Source: Eledone cirrhosa
Lineage: Eukaryota
DNA: 64,000 nt
Direction: 5' to 3'
Assembly: GCA_964016885.1 (NCBI GenBank)
Contig: CAXHJY010001768.1
Coordinates: 1-64,000 of the forward strand
The translations under genes and the position numbers were made by a program. The notes beneath the pieces were generated by a model that saw nothing but the letters and a program-made list of their open reading frames with translations, had not been told where the DNA came from and ran no database searches. Shown here piece after piece: positions 6,896 through 62,294 of this stretch; the first letter of the stretch is position 1; each line of letters begins with the position of its first letter.

Positions 6896-6935
6896 ATATG
6901 CATATGCTATAGGCGTTCTTTGTTATTTATTATAT

Positions 6936-7851: not shown

Positions 7852-7882
<31 letters not shown>

Positions 7883-7898
7883 TATATATATACACATA
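6936..7898. repeat. (TA)n/(CA)n compound microsatellite
   Basis: Directly visible. The distal part mirrors 4050-4490. Confidence 0.95.
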
Positions 7899-17176: not shown

Positions 17177-17243
17177 TATTTTATCTGATGAGGACGTACT
17201 GTTCAACTTAACTCAGTACCTCTGAAATATGTATAATAAAATA
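17177..17243 (+). ncRNA. Minimal type-I hammerhead ribozyme motif, about 50 nt upstream of (TA)n
   Basis: Stem I TATTTTAT/ATAAAATA. CTGATGA at 17185-17191. Stem II GGA/TCT plus GTACTG/CAGTAC. GAAA at 17224-17227. Stem III AT-ATGT-AT. Triplet AUA. Confidence 0.75.
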
Positions 17244-17449: not shown

Positions 17450-17851
17450 ACTGTATTGACTCCTGCATTGTACACCAATTTTCCTTGCTCATAACCTTTT
17501 TGCCTGTATTTTTTTGCCTGTGCTTTTTACTTATAACTATTACACTTCCAACCAGTGGTGCCTGTAATTGTGTTCTTTCAAGCAGAACATCTTTTTAACT
17601 CCTGACTCTTCACACGATGCCTTTGACACTAATAACAATTATGTACCCTAAATGTTCTAAATGACTAAGATTTTAGTAACATGTTACGACATTCCTTATG
17701 CTCCGATGATTCCAGACTTCCCCCCGGAAGAAACAATTGTCAGCAAATAAATGTTCTAAACTAAAATTTGATCATTTTAACACTTTGTATATATACATAC
17801 ATACATGCTCAGAAACACACAATGAAATTATGTAAGTGTAATAGTGTAATA

Positions 17852-17957
17852 TATAGGGTGTCCCCCAAAAATGTATACACACTTTCATCACCTGTACAGT
17901 CAATATTTATTAGAAGGCTCTTGAAGTGTGTATACATTTTTGGAGGGACACTCTCTA
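17852..17957. mobile_element. Tc1/mariner-type MITE
   Basis: TIRs of about 30 bp, AGGGTGTCCCCCAAAAATGTATACACACTT / AAGTGTGTATACATTTTTGGAGGGACAC, with TA flanks. Confidence 0.75.
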
Positions 17958-18289
17958 TATATCAATTGATTGTGTTTATTAAGAAAATTCAATTATTTTA
18001 CTTTTATAACTTAGCTACTGTACCAGAGTTATTCAATGTCAAATATACACAAATACATATACAAAGCTACATACACACACACAAACACATATGTAAATGT
18101 GTGTATGTGTATGTGTGTGTGCATGTGAATGAATTATGGGTAAACAATGTGGGGCAGGGTGGTGCCTTACAATAGATTAGAGGTCAGCTGAGTGGGTGGT
18201 TGTTGGGTGTGAAGTATAGGTGCTGGTAGCAATGTGTAGATGTACTGGTGCAGCTGCATGGGGATGGTGGGGTGGTAGTGTCGGTGGTG

Positions 18290-21500: not shown

Positions 21501-21812
21501 GTGTGTGGTGTGGTGGTGTGTGGTAATGGTGGTGTGTGGTAGTGGTGGTGTGTGGTATGGTGGTGTGTAATAGTGGTGGTGTGTGGTGGTGGTGTGTGGT
21601 GGTGTGTGGTAGTGGTGGTGGTGGTGTATGGTAGTGGTGGTGTGTGGTAATGGTGGTGTGTGGTAGTGGTGGTGTGTGGGGTGGGGTGTGGTGGGGTGTG
21701 GTGGTGGTGGTGTGTGGTAGTGGTGGTGTTTGGTAAGTGGTGGTGGTGGTGTGTGGTAGTGGTGGTGTGTGGTGGTGGTGTGTGGTGGTGGTGGTGTGTG
21801 GTAGTGGTGGTG
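18505..21812. repeat. G-rich simple repeat, dominant 14-mer GTGTGGTAGTGGTG
   Basis: Directly visible. Contains a unique island at about 18735-18810. Confidence 0.95.
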
Positions 21813-22425
21813 TATATAATAGTAATTTGGTATTTACAGTAATATTGACAGTGGGGATTTGATAAACACAAAAACCTGCTTATATACACCATATACACAC
21901 CATATTATATACACACCATAATATATACAGAACATATATATATATACACGACATTGTATTTACACCACATTATATGCACCCTATATCATATACACACCAT
22001 ATAATATACACCCTATATCGTATACACACCATATAATATACACTAACATAAATCACATAATAAACACACCACATTGCTTCACATAAGCTTTATTACACAC
22101 ACACACACACACACACAATACATCACACTACACACACATATATATATATAAACCACATTACATCACAATACAATATTACACATACACATTACATCACAAT
22201 ACAGATTGCATTTTACACACACACTAATACATCACACTACATACATATATTACATCACAATACAATATTTCACATACACACACACACCACCTATACCATA
22301 TACACCAATATACAATACATATTACACAATGCAAACCCCCCCCCACACACACACACACAAGCCATCAAAGGAACCTCTACATGGTCACTGGACTTGCTAG
22401 GAACAACAGCTAAATCTTTAGTTAT

Positions 22426-22635
22426 TATTGGCAAAGTAGAGCATTGACAAAATGCTTTGTGGTATTTGATTACAACTTTCTACGTTCTGAGTTCAAATCT
22501 TGTCGAAGTTAACTTTACCTGTCATCCATAAGGGGCCAATAAAATAAAGTACCAGTAATGCACTGGGGCGATTTAATCGACATTCCCCTCCCAAAATTGC
22601 TGGCCTTGTGCCTAAATCAGAAAATATTATTATCA
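22426..22635 (+). mobile_element. Older tRNA-derived SINE (Nin-like)
   Basis: TTCTGAGTTCAAATC, GTCATCC, AAAATAAAGTACCAGTAATGCACTGGGG and CTGGCCTTGTGCC motifs. Confidence 0.7.
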
Positions 22636-22649
22636 TCATTAAGGCGGTG

Positions 22650-31600: not shown

Positions 31601-31900
31601 TGATGTTGTTGGTGGTGATGTTGTTGGTGGTGGTGTTGTTGGCGGTGATGTTGTTGGTGGTGGTGTTGATGGTGGTGGTGATGTTGTTGGTGGTGGTGTT
31701 GTTGGTGGTGATGTTGATTGTGGTGGTGATGATGATTGTGGTAGTGATGATGATGTTGGTGGTATTACTAGTGATGATGATGTTGGTTGTGGTGGTGATG
31801 TTGTTGTTGGTGATGATCTTGTTGTTGGTGGTGATGTTGCTGTTGATTGTGATCGTGATGCTGATGTTGAGATTGGCAGTAGTAATGGTGCTGCTGATGT
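22650..31900. repeat. Mosaic trinucleotide array of GGT/GAT/GTT, about 9 kb
   Basis: Directly visible. Confidence 0.95.
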
Positions 31901-33572
31901 TGATATTGTTGTTGGTTGTGTGATAGTGGTGGTGCTGCTGTTGATGTTGTTGGTTGTGTGATGGTGGTGGTATTGATGTTGATGTTGTTGGTTGTGTGAT
32001 GGTGGTGGTATTGATGTTGATGTTGTTGGTTGTGTGATGGTGGTGGTATTGATGTTGATGGTGTTGGTTGTGTGATGGTGGTGGTATTGATGGTGTTGGT
32101 TGTGTGATGGTGGTGGTATTGATGTTGATGGTGTTGGTTGTGTGATGGTGGTGGTATTGATGTTGATGGTGTTGGTTGTGTGATGGTGGTGGTATTGATC
32201 TTGATGTTGTTGGTTGTGTGATGGTGGTGGTATTGATGTTGATGGTGTTGGTTGTGTGATGGTGGTGGTATTGATGGTGTTGGTTGTGTGATGGTGGTGG
32301 TATTGATGTTGATGGTGTTGGTTGTGTGATGGTGGAGGTATTGATGTTGATGGTGTTGGTTGTGTGATGGTGGTGGTATTGATGTTGATGTTGTTGGTTG
32401 TGTGATGGTGGTGGTATTGATGTTGATGGTGTTGGTTGTGTGATGGTGGTGGTATTGATGGTGTTGGTTGTGTGATGGTGGTGGTATTGATGTTGATGGT
32501 GTTGGTTGTGTGATGGTGGTGGTATTGATGTTGTTGGTTGTGTGATGGTGGTGGTATTGATGTTGATGGTGTTGGTTGCGTGATGGTGGTGGTATTGATG
32601 GTGTTGGTTGTGTGATGGTGGTGGTATTGATGTTGATGGTGTTGGTTGTGTGATGGTGGTGGTATTGATGGTGTTGGTTGTGTAATGGTGGTGGTATTGA
32701 TGTTGATGGTGTTGGTTGTGTGATGGTGGTGGTATTGATGTTGATGGTGTTGGTTGTGTGATGGTGGTGGTATTGATGTTGATGGTGTTGGTTGTGTGAT
32801 GGTGGTGGTATTGATGTTGATGTTGTTGGTTGTGTGATGGTGGTGGTATTGATGTTGATGGTGTTGGTTGTGTGATGGTGGTGGTATTGATGGTGTTGGT
32901 TGTGTGATGGTGGTGGTATTGATGGTGTTGGTTGTGTAATGGTGGTGGTATTGATGTTGATGGTGTTGGTTGTGTGATGGTGGTGGTATTGATGGTGTTG
33001 GTTGTGTAATGGTGGTGGTATTGATGTTGATGGTGTTGGTTGTGTGATGGTGGTGGTATTGATGGTGTTGGTTGTGTAATGGTGGTGGTATTGATGTTGA
33101 TGGTGTTGGTTGTGTGATGGTGGTGGTATTGATGTTGATGGTGTTGGTTGTGTGATGGTGGTGGTATTGATGGTGTTGGTTGTGTAATGGTGGTGGTATT
33201 GATGTTGATGGTGTTGGTTGTGTGATGGTGGTGGTATTGATGGTGTTGGTTGTGTGATGGTGGTGGTATTGATGGTGTTGGTTGTGTAATGGTGGTGGTA
33301 TTGATGTTGATGGTGTTGGTTGTGTGATGGTGGTGGTATTGATGTTGATGGTGTTGGTTGTGTGATGGTGATGGTGCTGCTGTTGATGTTGTTGGTTGTG
33401 TGATGGTGGTGGTATTGATGGTGTTGGTTGTGTGATGGTGGTGGTGCTGCTGTTGATGTTGTTGGTTGTGTGATGGTGGTGGTATTGATGGTGTTGGTTG
33501 TGTGATGGTGGTGGTGCTGCTGTTGATGTTGTTGGTTGTGTGATGGAGGTGGTGCTGCTGTTGATGGTGTTG
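31901..33572. repeat. Minisatellite of about 32-38 bp (GTTGGTTGTGTGATGGTGGTGGTATTGATGTTGATGGT)
   Basis: Directly visible. Confidence 0.9.
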
Positions 33573-33785
33573 TAGAAGTGTGGTGTGAGCAACACAGAAG
33601 AAAGGCTAAACCAAAGTGAGAAGTAAAAGAATTCCCATTACTTGAGAATAATTACAGGATCTTGAAATGTCAAACAGACACACACATACACACACATTTA
33701 CACAGAGATACACACACACAGTGTACTAATTACCCAAGCTTCTAACACAATCTTGCAACCACCTACACCCTCATCACATCATACT

Positions 33786-36490
33786 CACCACCACCACCAC
33801 CATCACCACCACCATATCACAACAACTATCACCACCACTACCACCACCATATCACAACAACAACGACGACTACCACCACCACCACCACCATATCACAACA
33901 ACGACGACGACTACCACCACCACCACCACCTCATCACAACAACGACGACTACCACCACCACCACCATATCACAACAACGACGACTACCACCGCCACCACC
34001 ACCACCATATCACAACAACGACGACTACCACCACCACCACATCACAACAACGACTACCACCACCACCACCACCACATCACAACAACAACGACTACCACCA
34101 CCACCACCACCACATCACAACAACAACAACAACGACTACCACCACCACCACCACCACATCACAACAACAACAACAACGACTACCACCACCACCACCACCA
34201 CCTCATCACAACAACAACAACAACGACTACCACCACCACCACCACCACCACCTCATCACAACGACGACGACTACCACCACCACCACCACCTCATCACAAC
34301 AACGACGACTACCACCACCACCACCACCACCATATCACAACAACGACGACTACCACCACCACCACCACATCACAACAACAACGACTACCACCACCACCAC
34401 CACCACATCAGAACAACAACGACTACCACCACCACCACCACCACATCAGAACAACAACGACGACTACCACCACCACCACCATATCACAACAACGACGACT
34501 ACCACCACCACCACCACATCACAACAACAACGACTACCACCACCACCACCACCACATCAGAACAACAACGACTACCACCACCACCACCACCACATCACAA
34601 CAATAACAACAACGACTACCACCACCACCACCACCACATCACAACAATAACAACAACGACTACCACCACCACCATCACCACCTCATCACAACAACGACGA
34701 CTACCACCGCCACCACCACCACCATATCACAACAACGACGACGACTACCACCACCACCACCACCACATCACAACAACAACGACTACCACCACCACCACCA
34801 CCACATCACAACAACAACGACTACCACCACCACCACCACCACCTCATCACAACAACGACGACTACCACCACCATCACCACCACATCACAACAACAACAAC
34901 GACTACCACCACCACCACCACCACCATATCACAACAACGACTACCACCACCACCACCACCTCATCACAACAACGACGACTACCACCACCACCACCACCAC
35001 ATCACAACAATAACAACGACTACCACCACCACCACCACCACATCACAACAACAACGACTACCACCACCACCACATCACAACAACAACAACAACGACTACC
35101 ACCACCACCACCACCACCACATCACAACAACAACAACGACGACTACCACCACCACCACCACCACCATATCACAACAACGACTACCACCACCACCACCACC
35201 ACCATATCACAACAACAACAACGACGACTACCACCACCACCACCACATCACAACAACGACTACCACCACCACCACCACCATATCACAACAACGACTACCA
35301 CCACCACCACCACCACATAACAACAACAACGACGACTACCACCACCACCACCACCACCATATCACAACAACAACGACTACCACCACCACCACCACCACCA
35401 CCATATCACAACAACAACGACTACCACCACCACCACCACCATATCACAACAACGACTACCACCACCATCATATCACAACAACAACATCGACTACCACCAC
35501 CACCACCACCATATCACAACAACGACGACTACCACCACCACCACCACCATATCACAACAACGACGACTACCACCACCACCACCATATCACAACAACAACA
35601 ACGACTACCACCACCACCACCACCACCATATCACAACAACAACAACGACTACCACCACCACATCACAACAACAACAACGACTACCACCACCACCACCACC
35701 ACATCACAACAACAACGACGACTACCACCACCACCACCACCATATCACAACAACGACTACCACCACCACCACCACCATATCACAACAACAACGACTACCA
35801 CCACCACCACCACATCACAACAACAACAACGACTACCACCACCACCACCACCATATCACAACAACAACGACTACCACCACCACCACCACCACCACCATAT
35901 CACAACAACAACAACAACGACTACCACCACCACCACCATCTCCACATCACAACAACAACAACGACTACCACCACCACCACCACCATCTCCACATCACAAC
36001 AACAACAACGACTACCACCACCACCACCACCATATCACAACAACAACAACGACTACCACCACCACCACCACCATCTCCACATCACAACAACAACAACGAC
36101 TACCACCACCACCACCACCATATCACAACAACAACAACGACGACCACCACCACCACCACCACATCACAATAACCACCATATCACAAGAACAACAATGACG
36201 ACCACCTCCACCACCATCATCATTCTATTACAACCACCACCACCGTCATCATCACCATATCAAAACAACAACAACGACCACCATCACCATATCACAACCG
36301 TAACAACAACAACCATCATCATCACCATATCAACAACGACTACCTCCATCATCATCATCACCATATCACAACAACAACGATGACAACCACCACCAGCAAT
36401 GATAATGCTGCTGCTGTTACTGTTACAGATACCACCATACAACACCACTACCGTCATGCAATCAAACTCCCCACCACCACCACCACCACC

Positions 36491-42569: not shown

Positions 42570-45500
42570 CCAGTAATACAGTCAGTCATAGCACCAGTTC
42601 CTTTTCTGTCATAGCACCAGTAATACAGTCAGTCATAGCACCAGTAATACAGTTAGTCATAACACCAGTTCATTTTCTATCATAGCACCAGTAATACAGT
42701 CAGTCATAGCACCAGTTCCTTTTCTGTCATAGCACTAGTAATACAGTCAGTCATAGCACCAGTTCCTTTTCTGTCATAGCACAAGTAATACAGTCAGTCA
42801 TAGCACCAGTTCCTTTTCTGTCATAGCACTAGTAATACAGTCAGTCATAGCACCAGTTCCTTTTCTGTCATAGCACCAGTAATACAGTCAGTCATAGCAC
42901 CAGTTCCTTTTCTGTCATAGCACAAGTAATACAGTCAGTCATAGCACCAGTTCCTTTTCTGTCATAGCACTAGTAATACAGTCAGTCATAGCACCAGTTC
43001 CTTTTCTGTCATAGCACTAGTAATACAGTCAGTCATAGCACCAGTTCCTTTTCTGTCATAGCACTAGTAATACAGTCAGTCATAGCACCAGTTCCTTTTC
43101 TGTCAAAGCACCAGTAATACAGTCAGTCATAGCACCAGTTCCTTTTCTGTCATAGCACCAGTAATACAGTCAGTCATAGCACCAGTTCCTTTTCTGTCAT
43201 AGCACTAGTAATACAGTCAGTCATAGCACCAGTTCCTTTTCTGTCATAGCACTAGTAATACAGTCAGTCATAGCACCAGTTCCTTTTCTGTCATAGCACT
43301 AGTAATACAGTCAGTCATAGCACCAGTTCCTTTTCTGTCATAGCACCAGTAATACAGTCAGTCATAGCACCAGTTCCTTTTCTGTCATAGCACCAGTAAT
43401 ACAGTCAGTCATAGCACCAGTTCCTTTTCTGTCATAGCACTAGTAATACAGTCAGTCATAGCACCAGTTCCTTTTCTGTCATAGCACTAGTAATACAGTC
43501 AGTCATAGCACCAGTTCCTTTTCTGTCATAGCACCAGTAATACAGTCAGTCATAGCACCAGTTCCTTTTCTGTCATAGCACTAGTAATACAGTCAGTCAT
43601 AGCACCAGTTCCTTTTCTGTCATAGCACCAGTAATACAGTCAGTCATAGCACCAGTTCCTTTTCTGTCATAGCACCAGTAATACAGTCAGTCATAGCACC
43701 AGTTCCTTTTCTGTCATAGCACTAGTAATACAGTCAGTCATAGCACCAGTTCCTTTTCTGTCATAGCACTAGTAATACAGTCAGTCATAGCACCAGTTCC
43801 TTTTCTGTCATAGCACCAGTAATACAGTCAGTCATAGCACCAGTTCCTTTTCTGTCATAGCACTAGTAATACAGTCAGTCATAGCACCAGTTCCTTTTCT
43901 GTCATAGCACCAGTAATACAGTCAGTCATAGCACCAGTTCCTTTTCTGTCATAGCACAAGTAATACAGTCAGTCATAGCACCAGTTCCTTTTCTGTCATA
44001 GCACTAGTAATACAGTCAGTCATAGCACCAGTTCCTTTTCTGTCATAGCACCAGTAATACAGTCAGTCATAGCACCAGTTCCTTTTCTGTCATAGCACTA
44101 GTAATACAGTCAGTCATAGCACCAGTTCCTTTTCTGTCATAGCACTAGTAATACAGTCAGTCATAGCACCAGTTCCTTTTCTGTCATAGCACCAGTAATA
44201 CAGTCAGTCATAGCACCAGTTCCTTTTCTGTCATAGCACTAGTAATACAGTCAGTCATAGCACCAGTTCCTTTTCTGTCATAGCACCAGTAATACAGTCA
44301 GTCATAGCACCAGTTCCTTTTCTGTCATAGCACCAGTAATACAGTCAGTCATAGCACCAGTTCCTTTTCTGTCATAGCACTAGTAATACAGTCAGTCATA
44401 GCACCAGTTCCTTTTCTGTCATAGCACTAGTAATACAGTCAGTCATAGCACCAGTTCCTTTTCTGTCATAGCACCAGTAATACAGTCAGTCATAGCACCA
44501 GTTCCTTTTCTGTCATAGCACTAGTAATACAGTCAGTCATAGCACCAGTTCCTTTTCTGTCATAGCACCAGTAATACAGTCAGTCATAGCACCAGTTCCT
44601 TTTCTGTCATAGCACCAGTAATACAGTCAGTCATAGCACCAGTTCCTTTTCTGTCATAGCACTAGTAATACAGTCAGTCATAGCACCAGTTCCTTTTCTG
44701 TCATAGCACCAGTAATACAGTTAGTCATAACACCAGTTCCTTTTCTGTCATAGCACCAGTAATACAGTCAGTCATAGCACCAGTTCCTTTTCTGTCATAG
44801 CACTAGTAATACAGTCAGTCATAGCACCAGTTCCTTTTCTGTCATAGCACTAGTAATACAGTCAGTCATAGCACCAGTTCCTTTTCTGTCATAGCACCAG
44901 TAATACAGTCAGTCATAGCACCAGTTCCTTTTCTGTCATAGCACTAGTAATACAGTCAGTCATAGCACAAGTAATACAGTCAGTCATAGCACCAGTTCCT
45001 TTTCTGTCATAGCACTAGTAATACAGTCAGTCATAGCACCAGTTCCTTTTCTGTCATAGCACCAGTAATACAGTTAGTCATAACACCAGTTCCTTTTCTG
45101 TCATAGCACTAGTAATACAGTCAGTCATAGCACCAGTTCCTTTTCTGTCATAGCACTAGTAATACAGTCAGTCATAGCACCAGTTCCTTTTCTGTCATAG
45201 CACCAGTAATATAGTCAGTCATAGCACCAGTAATACAGTCAGTCATAGCACCAGTTCCTTTTCTGTCATAGCACCAGTAATACAGTCAGTCATAGCACTA
45301 GTTCCTTTTCTGTCATAGTACTAGTAATACAGTCAGTCATAGCACCAGTTCCTTTTCTGTCATAGCACTAGTAATACAGTCAGTCATAGCACCAGTTCCT
45401 TTTCTGTCATAGCACCAGTAATACAGTCAGTCATAGCACCAGTTCCTTTTCTGTCATAGCACCAGTAATACAGTCAGTCATAGCACCAGTTCCTTTTCTG

Positions 45501-48500
45501 TCATAGCACTAGTAATACAGTCAGTCATAGCACCAGTTCCTTTTCTGTCATAGCACTAGTAATACAGTCAGTCATAGCACCAGTTCCTTTTCTGTCATAG
45601 CACTAGTAATACAGTCAGTCATAGCACCAGTTCCTTTTCTGTCATAGCACCAGTAATACAGTCAGTCATAGCACCAGTTCCTTTTCTGTCATAGCACCAG
45701 TAATACAGTCAGTCATAGCACCAGTTCCTTTTCTGTCATAGCACTAGTAATACAGTCAGTCATAGCACCAGTTCCTTTTCTGTCATAGCACTAGTAATAC
45801 AGTCAGTCATAGCACCAGTTCCTTTTCTGTCATAGCACCAGTAATACAGTCAGTCATAGCACCAGTTCCTTTTCTGTCATAGCACTAGTAATACAGTCAG
45901 TCATAGCACCAGTTCCTTTTCTGTCATAGCACCAGTAATACAGTCAGTCATAGCACCAGTTCCTTTTCTGTCATAGCACAAGTAATACAGTCAGTCATAG
46001 CACCAGTTCCTTTTCTGTCATAGCACTAGTAATACAGTCAGTCATAGCACCAGTTCCTTTTCTGTCATAGCACCAGTAATACAGTCAGTCATAGCACCAG
46101 TTCCTTTTCTGTCATAGCACTAGTAATACAGTCAGTCATAGCACCAGTTCCTTTTCTGTCATAGCACTAGTAATACAGTCAGTCATAGCACCAGTTCCTT
46201 TTCTGTCATAGCACCAGTAATACAGTCAGTCATAGCACCAGTTCCTTTTCTGTCATAGCACTAGTAATACAGTCAGTCATAGCACCAGTTCCTTTTCTGT
46301 CATAGCACCAGTAATACAGTCAGTCATAGCACCAGTTCCTTTTCTGTCATAGCACCAGTAATACAGTCAGTCATAGCACCAGTTCCTTTTCTGTCATAGC
46401 ACTAGTAATACAGTCAGTCATAGCACCAGTTCCTTTTCTGTCATAGCACTAGTAATACAGTCAGTCATAGCACCAGTTCCTTTTCTGTCATAGCACCAGT
46501 AATACAGTCAGTCATAGCACCAGTTCCTTTTCTGTCATAGCACTAGTAATACAGTCAGTCATAGCACCAGTTCCTTTTCTGTCATAGCACCAGTAATACA
46601 GTCAGTCATAGCACCAGTTCCTTTTCTGTCATAGCACCAGTAATACAGTCAGTCATAGCACCAGTTCCTTTTCTGTCATAGCACTAGTAATACAGTCAGT
46701 CATAGCACCAGTTCCTTTTCTGTCATAGCACCAGTAATACAGTTAGTCATAACACCAGTTCCTTTTCTGTCATAGCACCAGTAATACAGTCAGTCATAGC
46801 ACCAGTTCCTTTTCTGTCATAGCACTAGTAATACAGTCAGTCATAGCACCAGTTCCTTTTCTGTCATAGCACTAGTAATACAGTCAGTCATAGCACCAGT
46901 TCCTTTTCTGTCATAGCACCAGTAATACAGTCAGTCATAGCACCAGTTCCTTTTCTGTCATAGCACTAGTAATACAGTCAGTCATAGCACCAGTTCCTTT
47001 TCTGTCATAGCACAAGTAATACAGTCAGTCATAGCACCAGTTCCTTTTCTGTCATAGCACTAGTAATACAGTCAGTCATAGCACCAGTTCCTTTTCTGTC
47101 ATAGCACCAGTAATACAGTTAGTCATAACACCAGTTCCTTTTCTGTCATAGCACTAGTAATACAGTCAGTCATAGCACCAGTTCCTTTTCTGTCATAGCA
47201 CTAGTAATACAGTCAGTCATAGCACCAGTTCCTTTTCTGTCATAGCACCAGTAATACAGTCAGTCATAGCACCAGTAATACAGTCAGTCATAGCACCAGT
47301 TCCTTTTCTGTCATAGCACCAGTAATACAGTCAGTCATAGCACCAGTTCCTTTTCTGTCATAGTACTAGTAATACAGTCAGTCATAGCACCAGTTCCTTT
47401 TCTGTCATAGCACTAGTAATACAGTCAGTCATAGCACCAGTTCCTTTTCTGTCATAGCACCAGTAATACAGTCAGTCATAGCACCAGTTCCTTTTCTGTC
47501 ATAGCACCAGTAATACAGTCAGTCATAGCACCAGTTCCTTTTCTGTCATAGCACCAGTAATACAGTCAGTCATAGCACCATTTCCTTTTCTGTCATAGCA
47601 CTAGTAATACAGTCAGTCATAGCACCAGTTCCTTTTCTGTCATAGCACCAGTAATACAGTCAGTCATAGCACCAGTTCCTTTTCTGTCATAGCACCAGTA
47701 ATACAGTCAGTCATAGCACCAGTTCCTTTTCTGTCATAGCACCAGTAATACAGTCAGTCATAGCACCAGTTCCTTTTCTGTCATAGCACTAGTAATACAG
47801 TCAGTCATAGCACCAGTTCCTTTTCTGTCATAGCACCAGTAATACAGTCAGTCATAGCACCAGTTCCTTTTCTGTCATAGCACCAGTAATACAGTCAGTC
47901 ATAGCACCAGTTCCTTTTCTGCCATAGCACCAGTAATACAGTCAGTCATAGCACCAGTTCCTTTTCTGTCATAGCACTAGTAATACAGTCAGTCATAGCA
48001 CCAGTTCCTTTTCTGTCATAGCACCAGTAATACAGTCAGTCATAGCACCAGTTCATTTTCTGTCATAGCACCAGTAATACAGTCAGTCATAGCACCAATT
48101 CCTTATCTGTCATAGCACCAGTAATACAGTCAGTCATAGCACCAGTTCCTTTTCTGTCATAGCACTAGTAATACAGTCGGTCATAACACCAATTCCTTTT
48201 CTGTCATAGCACCAGTAATACAGTCAGTCATAGCACCAGTTCCTTATCTGTCATAGCACAAGTAATACAGTCAGTCATAGCACCAGTTCCTTTTCTGTCA
48301 TAGCACCAGTAATACAGTCAGTCATAGCACCAATTCCTTATCTGTCATAGCACTAGTAATACAGTCAGTCATAGCACCAGTTCCTTTTCTGTCATAGCAC
48401 CAGTAATACAGTCAGTCATAGCACCAGTTCCTTTTCTGTCATAGCACCAGTAATACAGTCAGTCATAGCACCAGTTCCTTTTCTGTCATAGCACTAGTAA

Positions 48501-49140
48501 TACAGTCAGTCATAGCACCAGTTCCTTTTCTGTCATAGCACCAGTAATACAGTCAGTCATAGCACCAGTTCCTTTTCTGTCATAGCACCAGTAATACAGT
48601 CAGTCATAGCACCAGTTCCTTTTCTGTCATAGCACCAGTAATACAGTCAGTCATAGCACCAGTTCCTTTTCTGTCATAGCACTAGTAATACAGTCAGTCA
48701 TAGCACCAGTTCCTTTTCTGTCATAGCACCAGTAATACAGTCAGTCATAGCACCAGTTCCTTTTCTGTCATAGCACCAGTAATACAGTCAGTCATAGCAC
48801 CAGTTCCTTTTCTGTCATAGCACTAGTAATACAGTCAGTCATAGCACCAGTTCCTTTTCTGTCATAGCACCAGTAATACAGTCAGTCATAGCACCAGTTC
48901 CTTTTCTGTCATAGCACCAGTAATACAGTCAGTCATAGCACCAATTCCTTATCTGTCATAGCACTAGTAATACAGTCAGTCATAGCACCAGTTCCTTTTC
49001 TGTCATAGCACTAGTAATACAGTCAGTCATAGCACCAATTCCTTTTCTGTCATAGCACCAGTAATACAGTCAGTCATAGCACCAATTCCTTTTCTGTCAT
49101 AGCACCAGTAATACAGTCAGTCATAACACCAATTCCTTTT
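42570..49140. repeat. Homogeneous 47-bp minisatellite, about 140 units
   Basis: Unit is GTCATAGCACCAGTTCCTTTTCT (23) plus GTCATAGCAC(C/T/A)AGTAATACAGTCA (24). Confidence 0.97.
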
Positions 49141-49521
49141 CCAGGGATGACAGGAAAATCAACTTCCACCTCAATTACTGAAGCAGAAGATGCAAAGGCA
49201 ACCCTTCCCAATCCTAAGATAGAGAAAGCTACTTCACACATGGACTCCAAGGTAAATGATGCTGAAGTTTCTCATCCTAAGAACACCATCCTATTCATTT
49301 GTGAAAATGAGGACAAAATAGTGGCTGAAAATGGCTGACATAATGTTAGAATCGGATTAGAAAAGAAGAAGAGAAAAACGAAAGGAAAATACCCAGTTCT
49401 ATCAGAAGGTATCTAAAATACAAGTTAAAGTGTTGTTCTTATAAATACAGTCATCAGAATTAGCTAAATTTTGTTTTGCTTAATAAAGTGTCAATTGGAT
49501 AGGACAGCCATGAAATATATG

Positions 49522-52029: not shown

Positions 52030-55000
52030 ATGTGAGCAGTTCTGTAATGTAGACCTACCATATTTATTTGTGCAACAACAGTACTGCCTGTGATATGTGA
52101 CCAGTACTGGTATGTAGGTCTATGATGTCTGTAAATGCAACATCACTATCCTATATATATGACCAGTACTATAATGTGAATCTATGTCTGTTTATGTAAC
52201 AACATCACTGTCCTAGGTGAGCAGTACTATAATGTGGGCTTAAGATGTCTGTATATGTAACAGCATCAATGTCCTATAATGTGGGCTTAAGATGTCTGTA
52301 TATGTAACAACATCACTGTCCTATAATGTGGGCTTAAGATGTCTGTATATGTAACAGCAGCACTGTCCTATATATGTGAGCAGTACTGTAATGTAGGTAT
52401 TTGATGTCTGTATAACAGTAACACTGTCTCAGATATATATGACCAGTACTGGTATGTAGGTCTATGATGTCTGTAAATGCAACATCACTGTCCTATATAT
52501 GTGAGCAGTACTGTAATGTGAATCTATGATGTCTGTATGTGTAACAGCAGCACTGACCTATATATATATATATAACCAGTACTGCAATATAAATCTATGT
52601 CTGTATATGTAACGACAGCAGCACTGTCCTATATATGTGAGCAGTACTATAATGTGGGTTTATGATGTATGTCTGTATAGCAGCAGCAGAGTCCAAGACA
52701 TCACCAGCGCTGTAATGTGGGTCTATGATGTCTGTATATGTAACAGCAGCATTGTCCTATATATGTGACCAGTACTATAATGTGGGTTTATGATGTATGT
52801 AGGTACAACAATAATACTGTCCCAGATATGTGAACAGTACTGTACTATGAATCTCTGATGTCTGTATATGTAACACCAGCACTGTCCTATATATATGACC
52901 AGCACTGTAATGTGAATCTATGATGTCTGTATATTTAACAACAGCGCTGTCCTTTATATATGACCAGCACTGTAATGTGAATCTATGATGTCTGTATATG
53001 TAACAGTAACACTGTCCTATATATATGACCAGCACTGTAATGTGAATCTATGTCTGTATATGTAACAGTAACACTGTCCTATACATATGACCAGCACTGT
53101 AATGTGAATCTATGATGTCTGTATATGTAACACCAGTACTGACCTATATATATGACCAGCACTGTAATGTGAATCTATGATGTCTGTCTATGTAACAGTA
53201 ACACTGTCCTATATATATGACCAGCACTGTAATGTGAATCTATGATGTCTGTATATGTAACACCAGTACTGACCTATATATATGACCAGCACTGTAATGT
53301 GAATCTATGATGTCTGTATATGTAACTAACACTGACCTATATATATATGACCAGCACTGTAATGTGAATCTATGATGTCTGTATATGTAACACCAGTACT
53401 GACCTATATATATGACCAGCACTGTAATGTGAATCTACGATGTCTGTATATGTAACAGTAACACTGACCTATATATATGACCAGCACTGTAATGTGAATC
53501 TATGATGTCTGTATATGTAACAGTAACACTGTCCTATATATATGACCAGCACTGTAATGTGAATCTATGATGTCTGTATATGTAACACCAGTACTGACCT
53601 ATATATATGAGCAGTACTGTAATGTGAATCTATGATGTCTGTATATGTAACAGTAACACTGACCTATATATATGACCAGCACTGTAATGTGAATCTATGA
53701 TGTCTGTATATGTAGCAGTAACACTGACCTATATATATATGACCAGCACTGTAATGTGAATCTATAATGTGTGTATATGTAATGTAACAGTAACACTGAC
53801 CTATATATATGACCAGCACTGTAATGTGAATCTATGTCTGTATATGTAACAGTAACACTGTCCTATATATATGACCAGCACTGTAATGTGAATCTATGTC
53901 TGTATATGTAACAGTAGCACAGTCCTATATATATGACCAGCACTGTAATGTGAATCTATGTCTGTATCTGTAACAGTAACACTGTCCTATACATATGACC
54001 AGCACTGTAATGTGAATCTATGATATCTGTATATGTAACACCAGTACTGACCTATATATATGACCAGCCCTGTAATGTGAAACTATATCTGTATATGTAA
54101 CAGTAACACTGTCCTATATATATGACCAGCACTGTAATGTGAATCTATGTCTGTATATGTAACAGTAACACAGTCCTATATATATGACTAGCACTGTAAT
54201 GTGAATCTATGTCTGTATATGTAACAGTAACACTGTCTTATACATATGACCAGCACTGTAATGTGAATCTATGATATCTGTATATGTAACACCTGTACTG
54301 ACCTATATATATGACCAGCCCCGTAATGTGAAACTATATCTGTATATGTAACAGTAACACTGTCCTATATATATGACCAGCACTGTAATGTCAATCTACG
54401 ATGTCTGTATATTTAACAACAGCACTGTCCTTTATATATGTAACAGTAACACTGTCCTATACATATGACCAGCACTGTAATGTGAATCTATGATGTTTGT
54501 ATATGTAGCACCAGTACTGACCTATATATATGACCAGCCCTGTAATGTGAATCTATATCTGTATATGTAACAGTAACACTGTCCTATATATATGACCAGC
54601 ACTGTAATGTGAATCTATGATGTCTGTATATTTAACAACAGCACAGTCCTATATATATGACCAGCACTGTAATGTGAATCTATGATGTCTGTATATGTAA
54701 CAGTAACACTGACCTATATATATGACCAGCACTGTAATATGAATCTATGATGTCTGTATATGTAACAGTAACACTGACCTATATATATGACCAGCACTGT
54801 AATGTGAATCTATGATATCTGTATATGTAACACCAGTACTGACCTATATATATGACCAGTACTGAATGTGAATCTATGATGTCTGTATATGTAACAGTAA
54901 CACTGACCTATATATATGACCAGCACTGTAATGTGAATCTATGATGTCTGTATATGTAACAGTAACACTGTCCTATACATATGACCAGCACTGTAATGTG

Positions 55001-55567
55001 AATCTATGTCTGTATATGTAACAATAACACTGTCCTATACATATGACAGCACTGTAATGTGAATCTATGTCTGTATATGTAACAGTAACACTGTCCTATA
55101 CATATGACCAGCACTGTAATGTGAATCTATGATGTCTGTATATGTAACACCAGTACTGACCTATATATATGACCAGCACTGTAATGTGAATCTATGTCTG
55201 TATATGTAACAGTAACACTGTCCTACACATATGACCAGCACTGTAATGTGAATCTATGTCTGTATATGTAACAGTAACACTGTCCTATACATATGACCAG
55301 CACTGTAATGTGAATCTATGATGTCTGTATATGTAACAGTAACACTGTCCTATATATATGACCAGCACTGTAATGTGAATCTATGATGTCTGTATATGTA
55401 ACACCAGCACTGTCCTATATATATGACCGGCCCTGTAATGTGAATCTATGTCTGTATATGTAACAGTAACACTGACCTGTATATATGATCAGCACTGTAA
55501 TGTGAATCTATGATGTATGTATATGTAACAGCAGCACTGTCCAAGGCATATGACCAGCACTGTAATG
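52030..55567. repeat. Minisatellite of about 62-67 bp
   Basis: TGACCAGCACTGTAATGTGAATCTATGATGTCTGTATATGTAACAGTAACACTGTCCTATATATA, more diverged at the left end. Confidence 0.93.
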
Positions 55568-55810: not shown

Positions 55811-56232
55811 GTGAAGGTATAAGGGGCCTACTTTGAAGGGGATTAGCAATTGAACCCAACCAAGTATGCAATTTTTCCCTTCAGCTTATTGTCAGATATT
55901 TTTTCAACAGCTCTCGCGTGTGTGTCTAATTAGACAATGTATAGTCTGTGCGGATAAAGAATTCATCAAATAAGTGTGTGTGCGTGTGCATATGTGTGGG
56001 TGTGTTTGTGTGTGCGTGTGTGTGTGTGCGCGAGTGTGTGTGATTATATTTACTGTTTGTTTATGACCCATAACATAGTGGTTCAACATTAAGAGATCAA
56101 TATAATAACTACCTTAGCTAACATCCTTTTATACATACAAACAGACACAGAGGAAGATATAGAAATAGTCAGATATGCAGGTAGGTATAATAGATCAATA
56201 GACAGATACAGAGAAAGGCAAGCAAATCTATA

Positions 56233-56457
56233 TTAACCCTTTAGCATTTACATTACTCTATATTTGCTATTGTATTTTTGTGGTAAAGGTTTTACTCTAC
56301 ATAGTTATCTAACATAATATCAAATCTATGAGATTTCGATATTATTTCAAGAACAGTACCTTAATATAAGTATGAACAGCCAGTTATGGTCGGTTTGAAC
56401 AGAGAGAGGTCAGAGAATTCTGGCTGGATATGGCTGGTTTAAATGCTAATGGGTTAA
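56233..56457. mobile_element. piggyBac-like TTAA MITE, most complete copy
   Basis: TTAA-CCCTTTAGCATTTA...TAAATGCTAATGGG-TTAA. Confidence 0.8.
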
Positions 56458-56596
56458 TACTGGTAGAGAAAAGTAGACAAATATATATTAATACTGGCAG
56501 AAAAAAAAAACAGACAGATATATATATATAGTAGTAATAGATAGGTAAAAATATCCAAGATATAGAGCAACTCAAGTCTGTAGGACAAGTTTGAAT

Positions 56597-56800
56597 ATAA
56601 TTACTAAGGCCAGTTACTACATCCAAGGTACATACAATTCGTTAGTCCTGAGGACCAACTTGTTCAAGCTGTGCCAGTGAAAACGAACCGGTTCATACAG
56701 TCCATTTCTGTCGGCACATATTGAACAAGTTGGTCCTCAGGGTTAATGAATCGTATGTACCTGGTATGGCACCATTGTAGTAACTGGCCTTAATAATTAT
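56597..56800. mobile_element. Fold-back MITE-like element with long imperfect inverted repeats
   Basis: ATAATTACTAAGGCCAGTTACTACA...CCTGAGGACCAACTTGTTCAA / TTGAACAAGTTGGTCCTCAGG...TGTAGTAACTGGCCTTAATAATTAT. Confidence 0.65.
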
Positions 56801-57040
56801 TTATATATTGGGACACTGCATCCTTCAAAATCTCCATGCTTCCTGAAATTCGCCAACACTACACCTGATATTCTCCCTCCATACACACGCATGCATATGT
56901 GTGTGTATCATGACTCAAACACTGTTCACTTTCCTGACATTTGTACATTATTCTATGTACTATACATGCACCTTTGATGAGTTGTAGTGCACCTGAGCAC
57001 TGTACACAATAATTTTCATTGTTTCATTATATATATATGT

Positions 57041-57340
57041 ATCATCATCATCATCATTTTACGTCCGCTTTTCCCTGCTTGCAAGGGTGGGACGGGAACT
57101 GATTCTGGCTTTATTTCTACAGCTGGATGCCCTTCCTAACACCAACCTCATTTACAGTGAGTGCTGGGTGGTTTTTTGCCGTGGCACCTCCACGACCACT
57201 TTGCAGTGAAATGATATCATCTCATTTCTACAGCTGAGTAAACTGGAGCAATGTGAAATAAAGTGTCTTGCTCAAGGAAACAACACATCACTCGGTCTGA
57301 GAATTGAACTCACAACCTTTCGACTGCAAGGCCAATGCTC

Positions 57341-57342
<2 letters not shown>
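57041..57342 (-). mobile_element. SINE with RTE-derived tail (family of 7899), 5' end lost at the (TA)n tract
   Basis: Reverse complement of about 7921-8241, lacking the internal GGGAC hairpin. Confidence 0.85.
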
Positions 57343-57394
<52 letters not shown>

Positions 57395-57421
57395 ATATTA
57401 TATATATATATATTATATATA

Positions 57422-57467
<46 letters not shown>

Positions 57468-57506
57468 TATATATAATATATATATATATATTAAACAATA
57501 TTAAAC

Positions 57507-58073
57507 AATTAAACAATAAAGAATTCAAAAATTCTAAATTCAAAAATTTTTTTCAAGTGATAATTCGGATTAAGTAAAGATATACATTGAAGTGAGTAAA
57601 TAATATGGAGAGAGATGTTTAAGTAATATGTTCTGGGAGGGATTCTAGTGTTACAGATATTGAATGGCAGTGCCGGACCTTATGACGGAGAGCAAACCAC
57701 ATGGTTCAAGGCATTAGTCAATCCGTTACACGGTCATACTTTCCATCACATGGAACAGAGTCAAAGAAAAACAGACAAAAAGTACACAAAAGAAAAACTT
57801 TTTGTCTGTTTTTCTTTGACTCTGTTCCATGTGATGGAAAGTATGACCGTGTAACGGATTGACTAATGCCTTGAACCATGTGGTTTGCCCTCCGTCATAA
57901 GGTCCGGCACTGCCGTTCAATATCTGTAACACTAGAATCCCTCCCAGAACATATTACTTAAACATCTCTCTCCATATTATTTACTCACTTCAATGTATAT
58001 CTTTACTTAATCCGAATTATCACTTGAAAAAAATTTTTGAATTTAGAATTTTTGAATTCTTTATTGTTTAATT
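57507..58073. repeat. Near-perfect palindrome: 277-bp arms, 13-nt spacer
   Basis: 57507-57783 versus 57797-58073, 2 mismatches seen. The mirror ORFs 57648(+) and 57932(-) confirm the symmetry. Confidence 0.95.
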
Positions 58074-58518
58074 TATAATCTCTGATATTTGATTTAGTAT
58101 ATTAATTTTTATTCCCAACTCTCACTCTTAACTTACTATGTAAAACCATAGTACCTAGAATTAAGTTTATTTTACCTTATGAGTTGATGGTCAGTCTTAC
58201 TGTCAAAGCTAAGTGAAAGGTAGTATTATGACCTATAAAAACTAACACCCTCCCATCCCCTCTGGCTTTCGGCTGACTGCCACACTAGCGATGGGTAGCA
58301 GTAAGTATTGGCAAGGCATAGGTGGGCCACTGACAGCGAATTTCGTTGAAATCTGCGGTGCTAATGGTCAACTTCCTTCGGACATGCGCTTGCGCAGACC
58401 GGTGGGGGTGAATTGGTACTCACAAGGGAACGGATGAAAAACCCAAAGGCACGAACTTCATCCGTTCCCATGTCGATTCAATTTGGATTGCCTCGGAAAC
58501 AACCTTATTATGTAACAA

Positions 58519-58592
58519 GCTGTCTGATGATGTCACGACACTCACACACAGAACAGTGTGGCCAGTGTCGTCATTGAAATATATATCACAGC
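58519..58592 (+). ncRNA. Type-I hammerhead-like motif, imperfect stem II base
   Basis: Stem I GCTGT/ACAGC. CTGATGA at 58524-58530. Stem II contains ACGACACT/AGTGTCGT. GAAA at 58576-58579. Palindromic loop T-ATAT-A. Triplet AUC. T/T mismatch at the first stem II pair. Confidence 0.6.
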
Positions 58593-58643
58593 ATTATTAT
58601 TAAAGGACTTGAACATCTGAAACTACTTCGCTTTTGCTTATTC

Positions 58644-58675
<32 letters not shown>

Positions 58676-58801
58676 TATATAGGTGAGTTTTATTGTAGTA
58701 CAATAAAGCAATGCAGATATCAGATAAGAACCACTCTACAGTTTGTAGAACTGGAGTATACATAATATATAAGATCAAAAGATGGTTAAATGAGTTCCAT
58801 G

Positions 58802-58872
58802 TATTTTATTATGCGCATTTCAAAAACAAATATCATCATGCAATAACATTTGTGTTTTCATCAGATAAAATA
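58802..58872 (-). ncRNA. Minimal type-I hammerhead ribozyme motif (inverted copy)
   Basis: Reverse complement of 58953-59023. Confidence 0.8.
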
Positions 58873-58952
58873 GGAGAACATGATATGAAGGTTAAAAACA
58901 CTTTAAAACTGCACTATCCACAAGTGTTTTTAACCTTCATATCATGTCCTCC

Positions 58953-59023
58953 TATTTTATCTGATGAAAACACAAATGTTATTGCATGATGATATTTGTT
59001 TTTGAAATGCGCATAATAAAATA
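58953..59023 (+). ncRNA. Minimal type-I hammerhead ribozyme motif
   Basis: Stem I TATTTTAT/ATAAAATA. CTGATGA at 58961-58967. Long stem II. GAAA at 59004-59007. Palindromic T-GCGC-A loop III. Triplet AUA at 59013-59015. Confidence 0.8.
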
Positions 59024-59053
59024 CATGGAACTCATTTAACCATCTTTTGATCT

Positions 59054-59084
<31 letters not shown>

Positions 59085-59266
59085 ACGAAGGAAATGTGGT
59101 AAGGAACCAGGTGGACCATAACGCACCAAAGTACTCAATACTTAGGGTAGTAGAGTGGGTAATAGGAACGAGTAGGACCCCGACGGCTGAGCTCAAGCCG
59201 TTTTGATTTTAGTCCAGAATTAGCCGCCGAAACGGCTTGAGCTCAGCCGTCGGGGTCCTACTCGTT

Positions 59267-59271
<5 letters not shown>
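59085..59271. mobile_element. Fold-back insertion: ~77-nt tail plus 42-bp arms containing the 3' half of a hammerhead
   Basis: Arms 59162-59203 and 59230-59271. GAAA-CGGCT-TGAGCTC-AGCC-GTC at 59229-59251. (TA)n on both sides. Confidence 0.7.
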
Positions 59272-59302
<31 letters not shown>

Positions 59303-59349
59303 AACCCATACTAGCGTGGAAGATAGGCATTAAACGATGATGATGATGA

Positions 59350-59384
<35 letters not shown>

Positions 59385-60059
59385 TACTGGTAGAAAAATA
59401 GCAGACAGATATATATCTATGTTGGTACTACATAAGTGTCTGTGAGAGAGAGAGAGAGGGGCTGTTCTTACCATGACAACCACCACCACTATCAGACCAA
59501 TCCAAAGCAGTCAACAGACATTATGAATATGTCCAGTTGAAAGACAATATCTGTGTAGCAACAGTTTTGTCTGTATAGTCTGTGAAGAATGGACATAGGT
59601 ATTGTATTGTGGACAATAGATAGAACAGATTGGGGAATATTTCACTATCCTCTCTCTCTCTCTCACACACACACATACACACAAAACCATACACACACAC
59701 ATCTACACATCTATACACACACAAAAGCATACACACACATACACACAACCATACACATATAAATATGCATATCTCTTCATATTTATTAGTGTAAATATGT
59801 GTGTGTGTCTGCACGCATGCAATGCTAAAAAATATGTAGAAGTATATCCTGAGTCCGAAGAGTCATTAAGCCAGAACTTATTCTATTTTCATTGATGTTG
59901 AGTGATTAAGAGCACAAAACTTTTCCCCTGGATTGGATGGTAGTCCATTGTATGGTTAAACTCCAGCTTCTGCTGGTACTCTTTTGCAGCTGAATGAACT
60001 GAAGGAATGGGAATTGAATCCACAACATTACGAATATGGTAAATATATATATATATATA

Positions 60060-60221
60060 ACAAAGGAAATGTGGTAAAGAACCAGATGGACCATAACGCA
60101 CCAAAGTACTCAATACTTAGGGTAGTAGAGTGAGTAATAGGAACGAGTAGGACCTCGACGGCTGAGCTCAAGCCGTTTCGACGGCTAATTCTGGACTACT
60201 AGTCGGGGTCCTATTCGTTCC

Positions 60222-60224
<3 letters not shown>
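60060..60224. mobile_element. Second copy of the 59085 element with 23-bp arms and the spacer in the opposite orientation
   Basis: Same tail with a few substitutions. Arms 60137-60159 and 60202-60224. The hammerhead 3' half is on the minus strand. Confidence 0.7.
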
Positions 60225-60252
<28 letters not shown>

Positions 60253-60299
60253 AGTGAAGTATTTCTGTCGGAAAGGTACAGGAAAAAAGAGTGCTCTAT

Positions 60300-60840
60300 G
60301 TAGGCTACAGAGCTTATTATATATATTCCCATTGTTGACAACAAAAGTTTTCTCCCTGCATACTTGAAGACAACTGTATGATGCCTATGTTTGAAGTGCA
60401 ATGCTGCATAGTACTGAAACATGGGCAGTGACAGCAGAAGACATGCATAAACTAGAGAGAAATGAAGCAGCCATGCTTTGTTAGACGTGTAATGTAAATG
60501 TGAAAGACAGAGCTGGGATGAACTGAAGCAGAAACTGGGTTTAAGTGGAATCTGAGGTTGTGTGCGGGAGAGAACACCGCATTGGTATGGACATGTGATG
60601 CACATGGATGATGATCAATGTGTGACAAAGTGCTAGGAATTGCCAGTGGATGGAAGCCGCAGTAGATGTAGACCAAGAAAGACCTGGGCAGAAGTGGTGA
60701 GAGCTGACCTCAAATTGCTAAGACTCACAGAGGAGATGACAAAGGAACCCGGCAATTGGAGAGATGCCATGTTGAGAAGGACCTGTCCAACCCATGCAAG
60801 CATGGAAAAACTGACATAGAAATGATGATGATGATGATAA
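60300..60840 (+). pseudogene. Old RTE 3' fragment
   Basis: Remnants of LYDA, LH.TETW, LERNEAAML, WYGHVM and RPRKTW. Tail CCATGCAAGCATGG...(GAT)n. Confidence 0.75.
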
Positions 60841-62294
60841 TGGTAGTGAAATTAATTTGAAAAAATAAAACCAGAACATACATAATATAAGTGATGAACA
60901 GGCATGGAGGAAAAAGAAAGTATGAAAGAAGAGGAAGATGACTTCACAATAGAAATATCTCTTGTTCTAGTAATTTCTAAAACTATCCTAGAGAAACCTC
61001 TTTAGATTTTAAAGCCTACCTGCTGTGTTATATAGAAGGGTGGATGATGATGTCTCTGTCTCTCGAGGGTAGACATCGTCAAAGGGTGGAGCTAATTTCA
61101 TTGATCATGACTCAACCATGGGTTATGTGTTTTAGCTTAGTTTATATTTTTACTGTTCAGTCAGAAAGGGAAGGGTAGTGCTTATTATTCTGTTTCAAGG
61201 ACACTGAGACTGGTGGAAGAGAAGTACGGTATTCTTAACCGAAAACCTGGTCTGAATGCTTGCAACAGAGTGGACTCTGTTAAAGGCACTCAAGAGTCAA
61301 ATGCTCATATTAAACTAGGTGATGGATTAAGTCTACCACTTGTGCAGTGTTCAAGAGGTAAGATGAAGGGGAGCCTCAGCCTGACTCTTCACAGGGAAAC
61401 AGTGTAGATATAAGCTCTTCTGAGTAAGAAATGATGATGGAGTAGGTGAAGTAAGTATTTTACTAGCTGAGAAGTGGGTAGATAATTGAAGTAGTTAGAG
61501 TGACAAAATTATCAAACTTAGAATGGTCGTAGACAACAGAAGGACAATGGTTATTTCTACATATGTGCCACTGTCAGGATTAAGTAAAAAAACAAAAGGA
61601 TCATTTCTATAAGGACCTCTTACAGATGACAACTTTTTCATCTTCACTGGAGCCTTCAATGGATATGTTGAGTAACACCAGGATAGCTATGTTACAATGG
61701 ACAGTGCCTATGGATATGTCTTGAGAAATGAAAAGGGATCAAGGTTCCTAGAATTCAGTGATGCAACTGACCTAACTAATTGCAACACAAATTTCAGGAA
61801 ACCAGCCAAACACTTGATCACCTACCAATCAGGTGGACATACAAGTCAGATTGTTTACTTTCTCATTAGAAAATGGGACAAATATATAGATGGTTTTGAA
61901 TGTTAGGTCCTGGAAAAAAATGCACTCCCAACATAAATTGGTTATTAGTGATGCCAGAATAAAGACTAAGCAAAACCAAAATAAATCTTAAGAAAAATCT
62001 ATGGAAGCTAAAATACCTCTCTGTTAAATATAGGTTCAGGAAAGCTCTACATGAGACATATAATGAAAGGGAAGAGGATATAGATACATATGACAGAGAG
62101 GACAACTGCAATCCACAGATGAAACCCTTGGCTGGAACAAGGTTCCAACCAGACGAAGGGTGACCCTGTGGTGGAACAGCACTGTAGACTAAAGCTAAAC
62201 GACAGGCAGACACGGAAAGACAGGGAAAATGGCAGCAACAAAGAACACTATCAAGCATCTAAGAAAAAAAGCTAGACTTCTAGTTTAATAGCAC

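Follow-up and report, generated by a model that had tools for sequence, protein, structure and literature searches.

Penelope-like elements (PLEs) have been described as leaving an inverted, 5'-truncated copy with a one-sided tail of 30-40 bp, and hammerhead ribozymes are found in most PLE clades (Craig et al. 2021, PMC8557442; this and later statements from the literature refer to the available portions of the cited papers). A preference for (TA)n is reported in the same paper for Naiad PLEs and for those of the Hydra clade, three Octopus families among them, and PLEs are known to occur in octopus genomes (PMC13282606, PMC8967140). Full-length PLE copies have been reported to carry direct, partial-tandem pseudo-LTRs (LTR, long terminal repeat), and single or inverted remnants that lack them are also reported. 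The hammerheads themselves were characterized by Cervera and De la Pena in 2014 (PMC4209133) as minimal ribozymes with a palindromic helix III, and opposite-strand pairs of them were found 100-700 bp apart. In vitro, a PLE protein was shown to cleave AT-rich DNA on both strands and to extend each of them, with the tail located between two reverse transcriptase (RT) start sites (Frangieh et al. 2024, PMC11167929), while head-to-head inversions were noted in the Adineta vaga Penelope paper, where self-priming was proposed (PMC3846280). Here, we describe a locus from the octopod Eledone cirrhosa in which this anatomy recurs several times within a short distance. The window, which is the whole 64,000-nt stretch of DNA analyzed (contig CAXHJY010001768.1 of assembly GCA_964016885.1), contains a TA-rich interval of 2,908 nt at 57343..60250 that holds four fold-back elements, E1 to E4, and a fifth ribozyme-bearing element, E5, lies outside the interval. 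In our assessment, E1-E4 are quite probably four separate, heavily 5'-truncated insertions made by PLE machinery and drawn from three families.

The inverted arms that a sequence-only reading of this DNA had proposed for the four elements were confirmed in each of them, as were the TA spacers. E1 (57492..58645, + strand) is a PLE-type truncated 3' end, with its sense strand at 57784-58645 (+) and, to the left, its 5'-most 277 nt copied in inverse orientation. The two 277-nt arms (57507-57783 and 57797-58073) have two mismatches, one of which is a CpG transition. The fold-back was earlier drawn over all of 57507-58645; it is limited to 57507-58073, and the remaining 572 nt are unpaired. The inverted arm begins at an internal AT-rich site and joins the TA tract via three 9-nt units, since the junction (57492..57506, - strand) consists of extra copies of the 9-nt end of the inverted arm, three including the arm's own, in a slippage-type arrangement. 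E2 (58682..59068) is a head-to-head inverted pair of one 3' end, with the long arm on the - strand and the short arm on the + strand. Its 147-nt arms (58757-58903 and 58922-59068) differ at two positions, one at the TA junction, and a one-sided extension of 75 nt (58682..58756, - strand) forms the tail. E3 (59085..59271) is likewise a head-to-head inverted pair, with perfectly matched arms of 42 nt (59162-59203 and 59230-59271) and a 77-nt tail at 59085-59161 (- strand). In E4 (60060..60224) the arms are 23 nt long with two mismatches (60137-60159 and 60202-60224), and the tail at 60060-60136 is again 77 nt. Arm identity is therefore 99-100% in E1-E3, and one arm ends 75 (E2), 77 (E3), 77 (E4), or 572 (E1) nt short of the element end. 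TA runs were found at all eight outer junctions of E1-E4. Direct repeats of the partial-tandem pseudo-LTR type were looked for inside E1-E4 and were found in none of them. No target-site duplication was readable in the TA flanks, where a single shared interruption beside E1 is too weak to count as one.

E4 shares its sequence family and both of its outer ends with E3 but has another center. The long arms of the two elements are identical at 114 of 119 bases, and both outer ends are common to them while the centers and flanks differ, which fits two insertions from one RNA. E3 and E4 thus belong to one family, and E1-E4 comprise three families rather than four. E1, E2, and E3/E4 showed no shared sequence above shuffled controls when compared with one another. 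The earlier proposal of serial integration by different families is supported, with their number reduced by one, by this lack of common sequence, by TA at each junction, and by an anatomy like that of retroelements with a (TA)n preference.

Hammerhead ribozymes were sought with a custom type-I motif scan of the whole window, using dinucleotide shuffles as controls. The scan returned four type-I motifs, at 58524 (+, E1), 58961 (+, E2), 58864 (-, E2), and 17185 (+, E5). Three of these fall in the 2,908-nt interval at strict settings, two being the mirror copies in E2 (i.e., two independent motifs), and one strict motif appeared in 1 of 2000 dinucleotide shuffles, with none containing more. The E1 hammerhead (58519..58592, + strand) has a 5-bp helix I, a long helix II, and a palindromic helix III, with cleavage predicted after 58587. 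In E2, the long arm carries a hammerhead at 58802..58872 (-, core at 58864, predicted cleavage after 58810) and the short arm one at 58953..59023 (+, core at 58961, predicted cleavage after 59015). The E5 hammerhead (17177..17243, + strand) has the same helix I as E2. E5 shows no fold-back and no inverted arm, and it ends ~50 nt past its predicted cleavage site, with TA from ~17287; a 5' boundary was not found for it. The motifs of E1, E2, and E5 all combine a long helix II with a loop-less, 6-nt palindromic helix III, which includes one G-U pair in E5. Co-folding computed for dimers joined through the helix III palindrome gave -51.8 kcal/mol for E1, as compared to -23.6 kcal/mol for the monomer, and -33.3 versus -10.6 kcal/mol for E2.

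A partial hammerhead was found in each of the remaining two elements. In E3 (59204..59258, + strand) it consists of a distal, helix-II-like hairpin of 7 bp at the place expected for helix II, followed by GAAA, a helix III of 5 bp whose loop is palindromic, and a GUC site; the core lacks its first half. The E4 counterpart is on the - strand, with GAAA at 60179. The pattern of GAAA, 5-bp helix III with palindromic loop, and GUC was chosen post hoc, occurred in 91 of 20,000 shuffles, and has two unrelated sites among its four in the window. From their sequences, E3 and E4 are probably truncated inside helix II. The window's five ribozyme-bearing elements all have the ribozyme directed toward a TA junction. 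With the sense strand assigned from the ribozyme direction, E1-E4 have their 3' ends on the outside, facing TA, and their 5' ends together at the center. The distance from the predicted cleavage site to the element end is 58 nt in E1 and 43-53 and 128 nt in E2, and from the GUC site of E3 at 59251 the two ends are ~20 and ~97 nt away. Two further features of E1 were noted. A degenerate hammerhead-like motif at 58165-58245 (+, site 58176), with one core mismatch and an unclosed helix II, occurred in 2 of 200 shuffles and is not counted above; it would allow E1 to be two tandem pieces. A 13-bp hairpin at 58426-58469, ~50 nt upstream of the E1 hammerhead, is part of a larger fold.

Taken together, the inverted arm, one-sided extension, outward ribozymes, and TA junctions match the anatomy of published truncated PLE ends, apart from the greater length of the extension. 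A type-I hammerhead near the 3' end on the sense strand is present in E1, in both arms of E2, and in E5, with only its 3' part in E3 and E4; a head-to-head inverted, 5'-truncated copy is present in E2, E3, and E4 and covers only the 5'-most 277 nt in E1; and the (TA)n or AT-rich target is seen at every outer junction. The assignment rests on RNA motif, structure, and target rather than on protein, and the elements are best called probable Penelope-type ends. Among the described clades, Hydra PLEs (e.g., Hydra-1_Obim and Penelope-13_HM; PMC8557442) resemble the present elements in using (TA)n in almost all families and in having a hammerhead near the 3' end, and Penelope-13_HM has an inverted, 5'-truncated copy with a ribozyme on each strand, as does E2. 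In contrast to the loop-less palindrome described here, the listed Hydra helices III mostly have a loop of 1-3 nt, and the present elements also differ from that clade in their longer tails, in having no open reading frame (ORF) by which a clade could be assigned, and in giving no match to it for five short motifs searched on one strand. Penelope/Poseidon and Neptune ends (PMC4209133; PMC11167929; PMC3846280) share the long helix II, palindromic helix III, inverted copies, one-sided tail, and AT-rich targets, but their tails are 30-40 bp, not 75-77 nt, and the elements here have neither an ORF start nor a direct (tandem) pseudo-LTR pair. Naiad PLEs (PMC8557442) have the (TA)n target, inverted copies, and tail, and Naiad_Ovul is annotated with an 'HHR_half_core'. 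However, canonical hammerheads are lacking in Naiads according to the available text, so E1, E2, and E5 do not fit, and the Naiad half core is the first half of the core, whereas the second half is what E3 and E4 retain, apparently through truncation.

Several results weigh against a PLE origin. The one-sided tails of 75-77 nt, equal in E3 and E4, exceed the published 30-40 bp, and the position of the E1 inverted arm, which begins 572 nt in from the 3' end, is not accounted for by a standard tail. None of five short motifs from the elements matched the PLE supplement of PMC8557442, a search made on one strand of a text in which line breaks may hide a match. E5 did not form a hammerhead dimer on co-folding. 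An Rfam scan of 56000-61500 at E values up to 5 gave 32 matches with no hammerhead or other ribozyme family among them; none reached the gathering score and most were hairpin microRNA models. With respect to protein, 27 short frames of E1-E3 and E5 (22 chosen from a list of 53 and 5 from a list of 29) gave no Pfam match below E 0.01 and no RT or GIY-YIG domain, the best value of 0.013 over these frames being taken as chance; for E1, no match below E 0.09 was obtained in the 16 frames scanned. E1-E4 were also translated in all six frames, which revealed neither an RT nor an endonuclease remnant; among 12 longer frames of the window, the single RT belongs to a long interspersed nuclear element (LINE), with none of PLE type. 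Since the pieces are ends of 165-1,150 nt, the absence of RT and endonuclease is expected after truncation, but it keeps PLE membership and clade at candidate level. The LINE in question (9231-11645, + strand) has an 804-aa open frame with an RT and a weak PHD-finger match; the best listed matches in a homology search with this frame are ~52% identical and are APE-RT LINEs. A second, inverted copy at 12046-14195 (-) is 91% identical to it over 2.2 kb.

The arms, tails, ribozyme motifs with their orientation, TA flanks, and family count are observed, and a scheme for their origin can be proposed in which we infer ribozyme activity, the enzymes, the order of events, and an autonomous or non-autonomous source. 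A GIY-YIG endonuclease would nick (TA)n, and the RT, starting 20-130 nt downstream of the hammerhead, would copy the RNA and terminate prematurely. A further strand of that end, running in the opposite direction, could then arise from a second RT start site, which is the published origin of the tail, or from fold-back and self-copying of the cDNA until a TA-like stretch anneals to the target. Either way, a head-to-head pair would result, with TA at its flanks and one arm longer than the other. A/T-rich bases able to anneal to TA lie at the end of each short arm in E2-E4 and of the E1 inverted arm, as the fold-back route predicts, and the constant tail of E3 and E4 fits both routes. An insertion inside a tract would leave TA on both sides that could be hit again later, and the cluster would follow from the shared target.

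E1 and E2 are separated by 36 nt of TA (58646..58681) and E2 and E3 by 16-31 nt, depending on where the TA-like end of E2 is drawn (59069..59084 at its shortest). E4 had been placed in the next TA tract, which is incorrect. The TA after E3 (59272..59298) is followed by a 53-nt LINE 3'-tail fragment (59299..59351, + strand), which is not a fold-back, was overlooked in the earlier reading, belongs to a family ending in (GAT)n, and was aligned with five other window copies. Next come a TA run (59352..59381) and a copy of the local background unit, which occurs with short TA runs at 56455, 56489, and 59382. The fragment, the TA runs, and then ~660 nt of other sequence intervene before E4, whose own TA flanks are at 60043..60059 and 60225..60252. 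Another short LINE-tail fragment, at 8368-8453 (-), has TA-rich microsatellite on both sides, comparable to that at 59299-59351.

The simplest account of the cluster, and one that we find somewhat favored, is that the TA was pre-existing and that TA-seeking elements landed in proportion to pure TA, with no need for regeneration. The interval contains 295 of the window's 1,096 nt of pure TA in runs of at least 6 units, 235 of 522 nt at a cut-off of 8 units, and 202 of 272 nt at 10 units (27-74%). The corresponding probabilities of finding at least four of the five ribozyme-bearing elements in the interval are 0.02, 0.13, and 0.62, in a test that is post hoc and also circular if insertions create pure TA. 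The two stricter cut-offs agree with a passive target and the loosest one speaks against it; a hotspot beyond TA density, as had been suggested, is thus not separable from TA density within the window. The other two copies of the adjacent short interspersed nuclear element (SINE) also run into TA-rich tails, the local background unit brings short TA runs of its own, the LINE tail fragment likewise lies within these tracts, and de novo PLE insertions in Chlamydomonas, of median length 128 bp, were spread like their microsatellite target (PMC9977147). On the other hand, the long degenerate tails at 4053-4499 and 6931-7892 have no hammerhead motif. As an insertion within a tract would retain TA to either side with no new synthesis, regeneration is not required; the evidence does not establish the earlier idea that each insertion regenerates TA as the next target.

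The elements could also be short, non-autonomous, retrozyme-like hammerhead elements moved in trans by PLE proteins, which we regard as a less likely alternative. It would agree with the finding of no coding remnant in the frames scanned and with the fact that E3 and E4 terminate at nearly one internal position, only a few bases apart. Animal retrozymes have been proposed to derive from PLE repeats, and the non-LTR retrozymes are non-coding, have type-I hammerheads, and are linked to PLEs, as here (bioRxiv 10.64898/2026.07.22.740005). However, retrozymes are tandem units with a full ribozyme each, whereas the present elements are single or inverted, and E3 and E4 have half a core; a tandem array was looked for over E1-E4 and none was found. 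Moreover, the short median length of new PLE insertions cited above (PMC9977147) indicates that truncation often yields pieces of this size.

Active regeneration, in which integration copies or extends the target so that each event makes fresh pure TA, is an unlikely explanation of the cluster on balance, and its evidence comes mainly from TA tract 1. This tract (57344..57491) is pure A/T, with segments of 40, 15, 15, 15, 32, 15, and 16 nt, and looks newly made. It has no G/C in 148 nt, as compared to 80 of 447 and 144 of 962 nt (15-18%) in the tails of the other SINE copies, and its 15-nt units are mirrored in a perfect 92-nt palindrome (57399-57490) spanning four interruptions. Random placements of the interruptions gave four of five internal segments equal in 6 of 200,000 trials and a mirrored pair in 3,581 of 200,000, under a null that ignores slippage, which itself copies interruptions. 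Slippage can yield this periodicity without any element, and tract 1 is therefore only a lead. The tract adjoins the threefold 9-nt junction of E1 on one side and, on the other, a SINE-type composite repeat (57028..57343, + strand) whose 3' end is 20 nt short and runs into TA. This repeat is identical to the copy near 7911-8250 (-) at 289 of 301 aligned bases, and the alignment with two other window copies agrees with the earlier description of it as truncated at the TA boundary. A 14-nt motif of the missing end has two matches in the 64,000 nt, only in the two other copies; with no match downstream, the end was deleted rather than displaced. Eight of the nine (TA)n runs of at least 10 units are in the interval or next to E5. 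Against regeneration, there is only one such tract, the other spacers are short (16-36 nt), and no duplication is readable. An empty-site paralog was sought through the common downstream flank of the other two SINE copies, which was not found to the right of the cluster. With regard to the SINE itself, it lacks at 57200-57215 a 16-nt hairpin-forming stretch of the two other copies, and 3874-4499 and 7451-8073 form an inverted local duplication of SINE plus degenerate TA tail (94%) with a common far flank.

A stronger form of the same idea is self-feeding, in which the end of a nicked (TA)n tract would fold onto itself and serve as template, and the telomerase-related RT would repeat short units before engaging, to give new pure TA. 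A fold-back ending at the first TA-like stretch could then set the unpaired lengths of 75, 77, and 572 nt, as a second route to the PLE tail, and hotspots would feed across PLE families. Such fold-back or reiteration making TA is suggested by the tract 1 palindrome (92 nt, in 15-nt units) and by the 9-nt unit present three times beside E1, but the proposal as a whole is speculative and quite unlikely.

That the fold-backs formed after insertion, when ordinary PLE ends broke at (TA)n hairpins and underwent snap-back repair, is improbable. In its favor are the palindromic nature of tract 1 and the start of the E1 inverted arm, which is internal and AT-rich. Against it, the two outer ends of E3 recur in E4 at a different site, and inverted pairs are described as a normal PLE product.

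Microsatellite-targeting MITEs (transposable elements of the miniature inverted-repeat type) or foldback DNA transposons would account for long inverted arms, TA flanks, and the lack of coding capacity. Here, the inverted repeats are not terminal, as one arm ends 75-572 nt short of the element end, and ribozyme motifs are not a MITE feature. The window also has symmetric, MITE-like fold-backs with TA at their ends (56597-56800 and 17849-17960), which we take to be of Tc1/mariner type, and these have no ribozyme motif. A MITE or foldback transposon origin of E1-E4 is thus very improbable, even though the pineapple Ac-mMITE (PMC8449440) forms similar clusters, with 10,137 elements (46.1% of full-length elements) in 4,024 non-nested, TA-linked clusters. 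There, as here, independent insertions are joined by nearly pure (TA)n, but the Ac-mMITE elements are DNA transposons with terminal inverted repeats and no ribozyme or tail. A read or assembly artefact (fold-back chimeras) is hardly credible: the arms of E1-E3 are nearly identical and such structures are known to trouble assemblies (PMC8557442), but the arms are asymmetric, two diverged copies share outer ends, and the ribozymes all point outward, evidence stronger than the arm mismatches invoked earlier, which exist (e.g., the CpG transition of E1) but number only 0-2 per element.

If E1-E4 are PLE ends, they illustrate how readily pieces of this kind may be classed as MITEs or unidentified palindromes; it is the ribozyme motif and tail that place them with PLEs. 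Their structure, target, and TA-linked clustering have each been described already; what lacks an explanation is the extra tail length and the palindromic TA tract. The three candidate families had no match in the one published set checked (PMC8557442 supplement), and a search by title and abstract opening, with most subscription papers outside its scope, listed no paper on several PLE families clustered within a single TA tract. The locus offers a compact setting for two questions, namely by what route the inverted pair and its tail arise and what makes microsatellites the preferred target. Should integration indeed create pure TA, a telomerase-related RT would be linked to microsatellite growth and to self-feeding hotspots.

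Other repeats were also noted in the window. A repeat at 56232-56457 has short inverted ends flanked by TTAA, with other copies at 145-315 and 2355-2519, and is presumably a piggyBac-like MITE. A (GTG/TGG)n-type repeat of ~15 kb (+) lies within 18506-36200 and switches to (CAC)n near 33.7 kb. Lastly, satellite arrays at 42632-49141 and 52338-55567 are built of 47-nt (97% matches) and 65-nt units.

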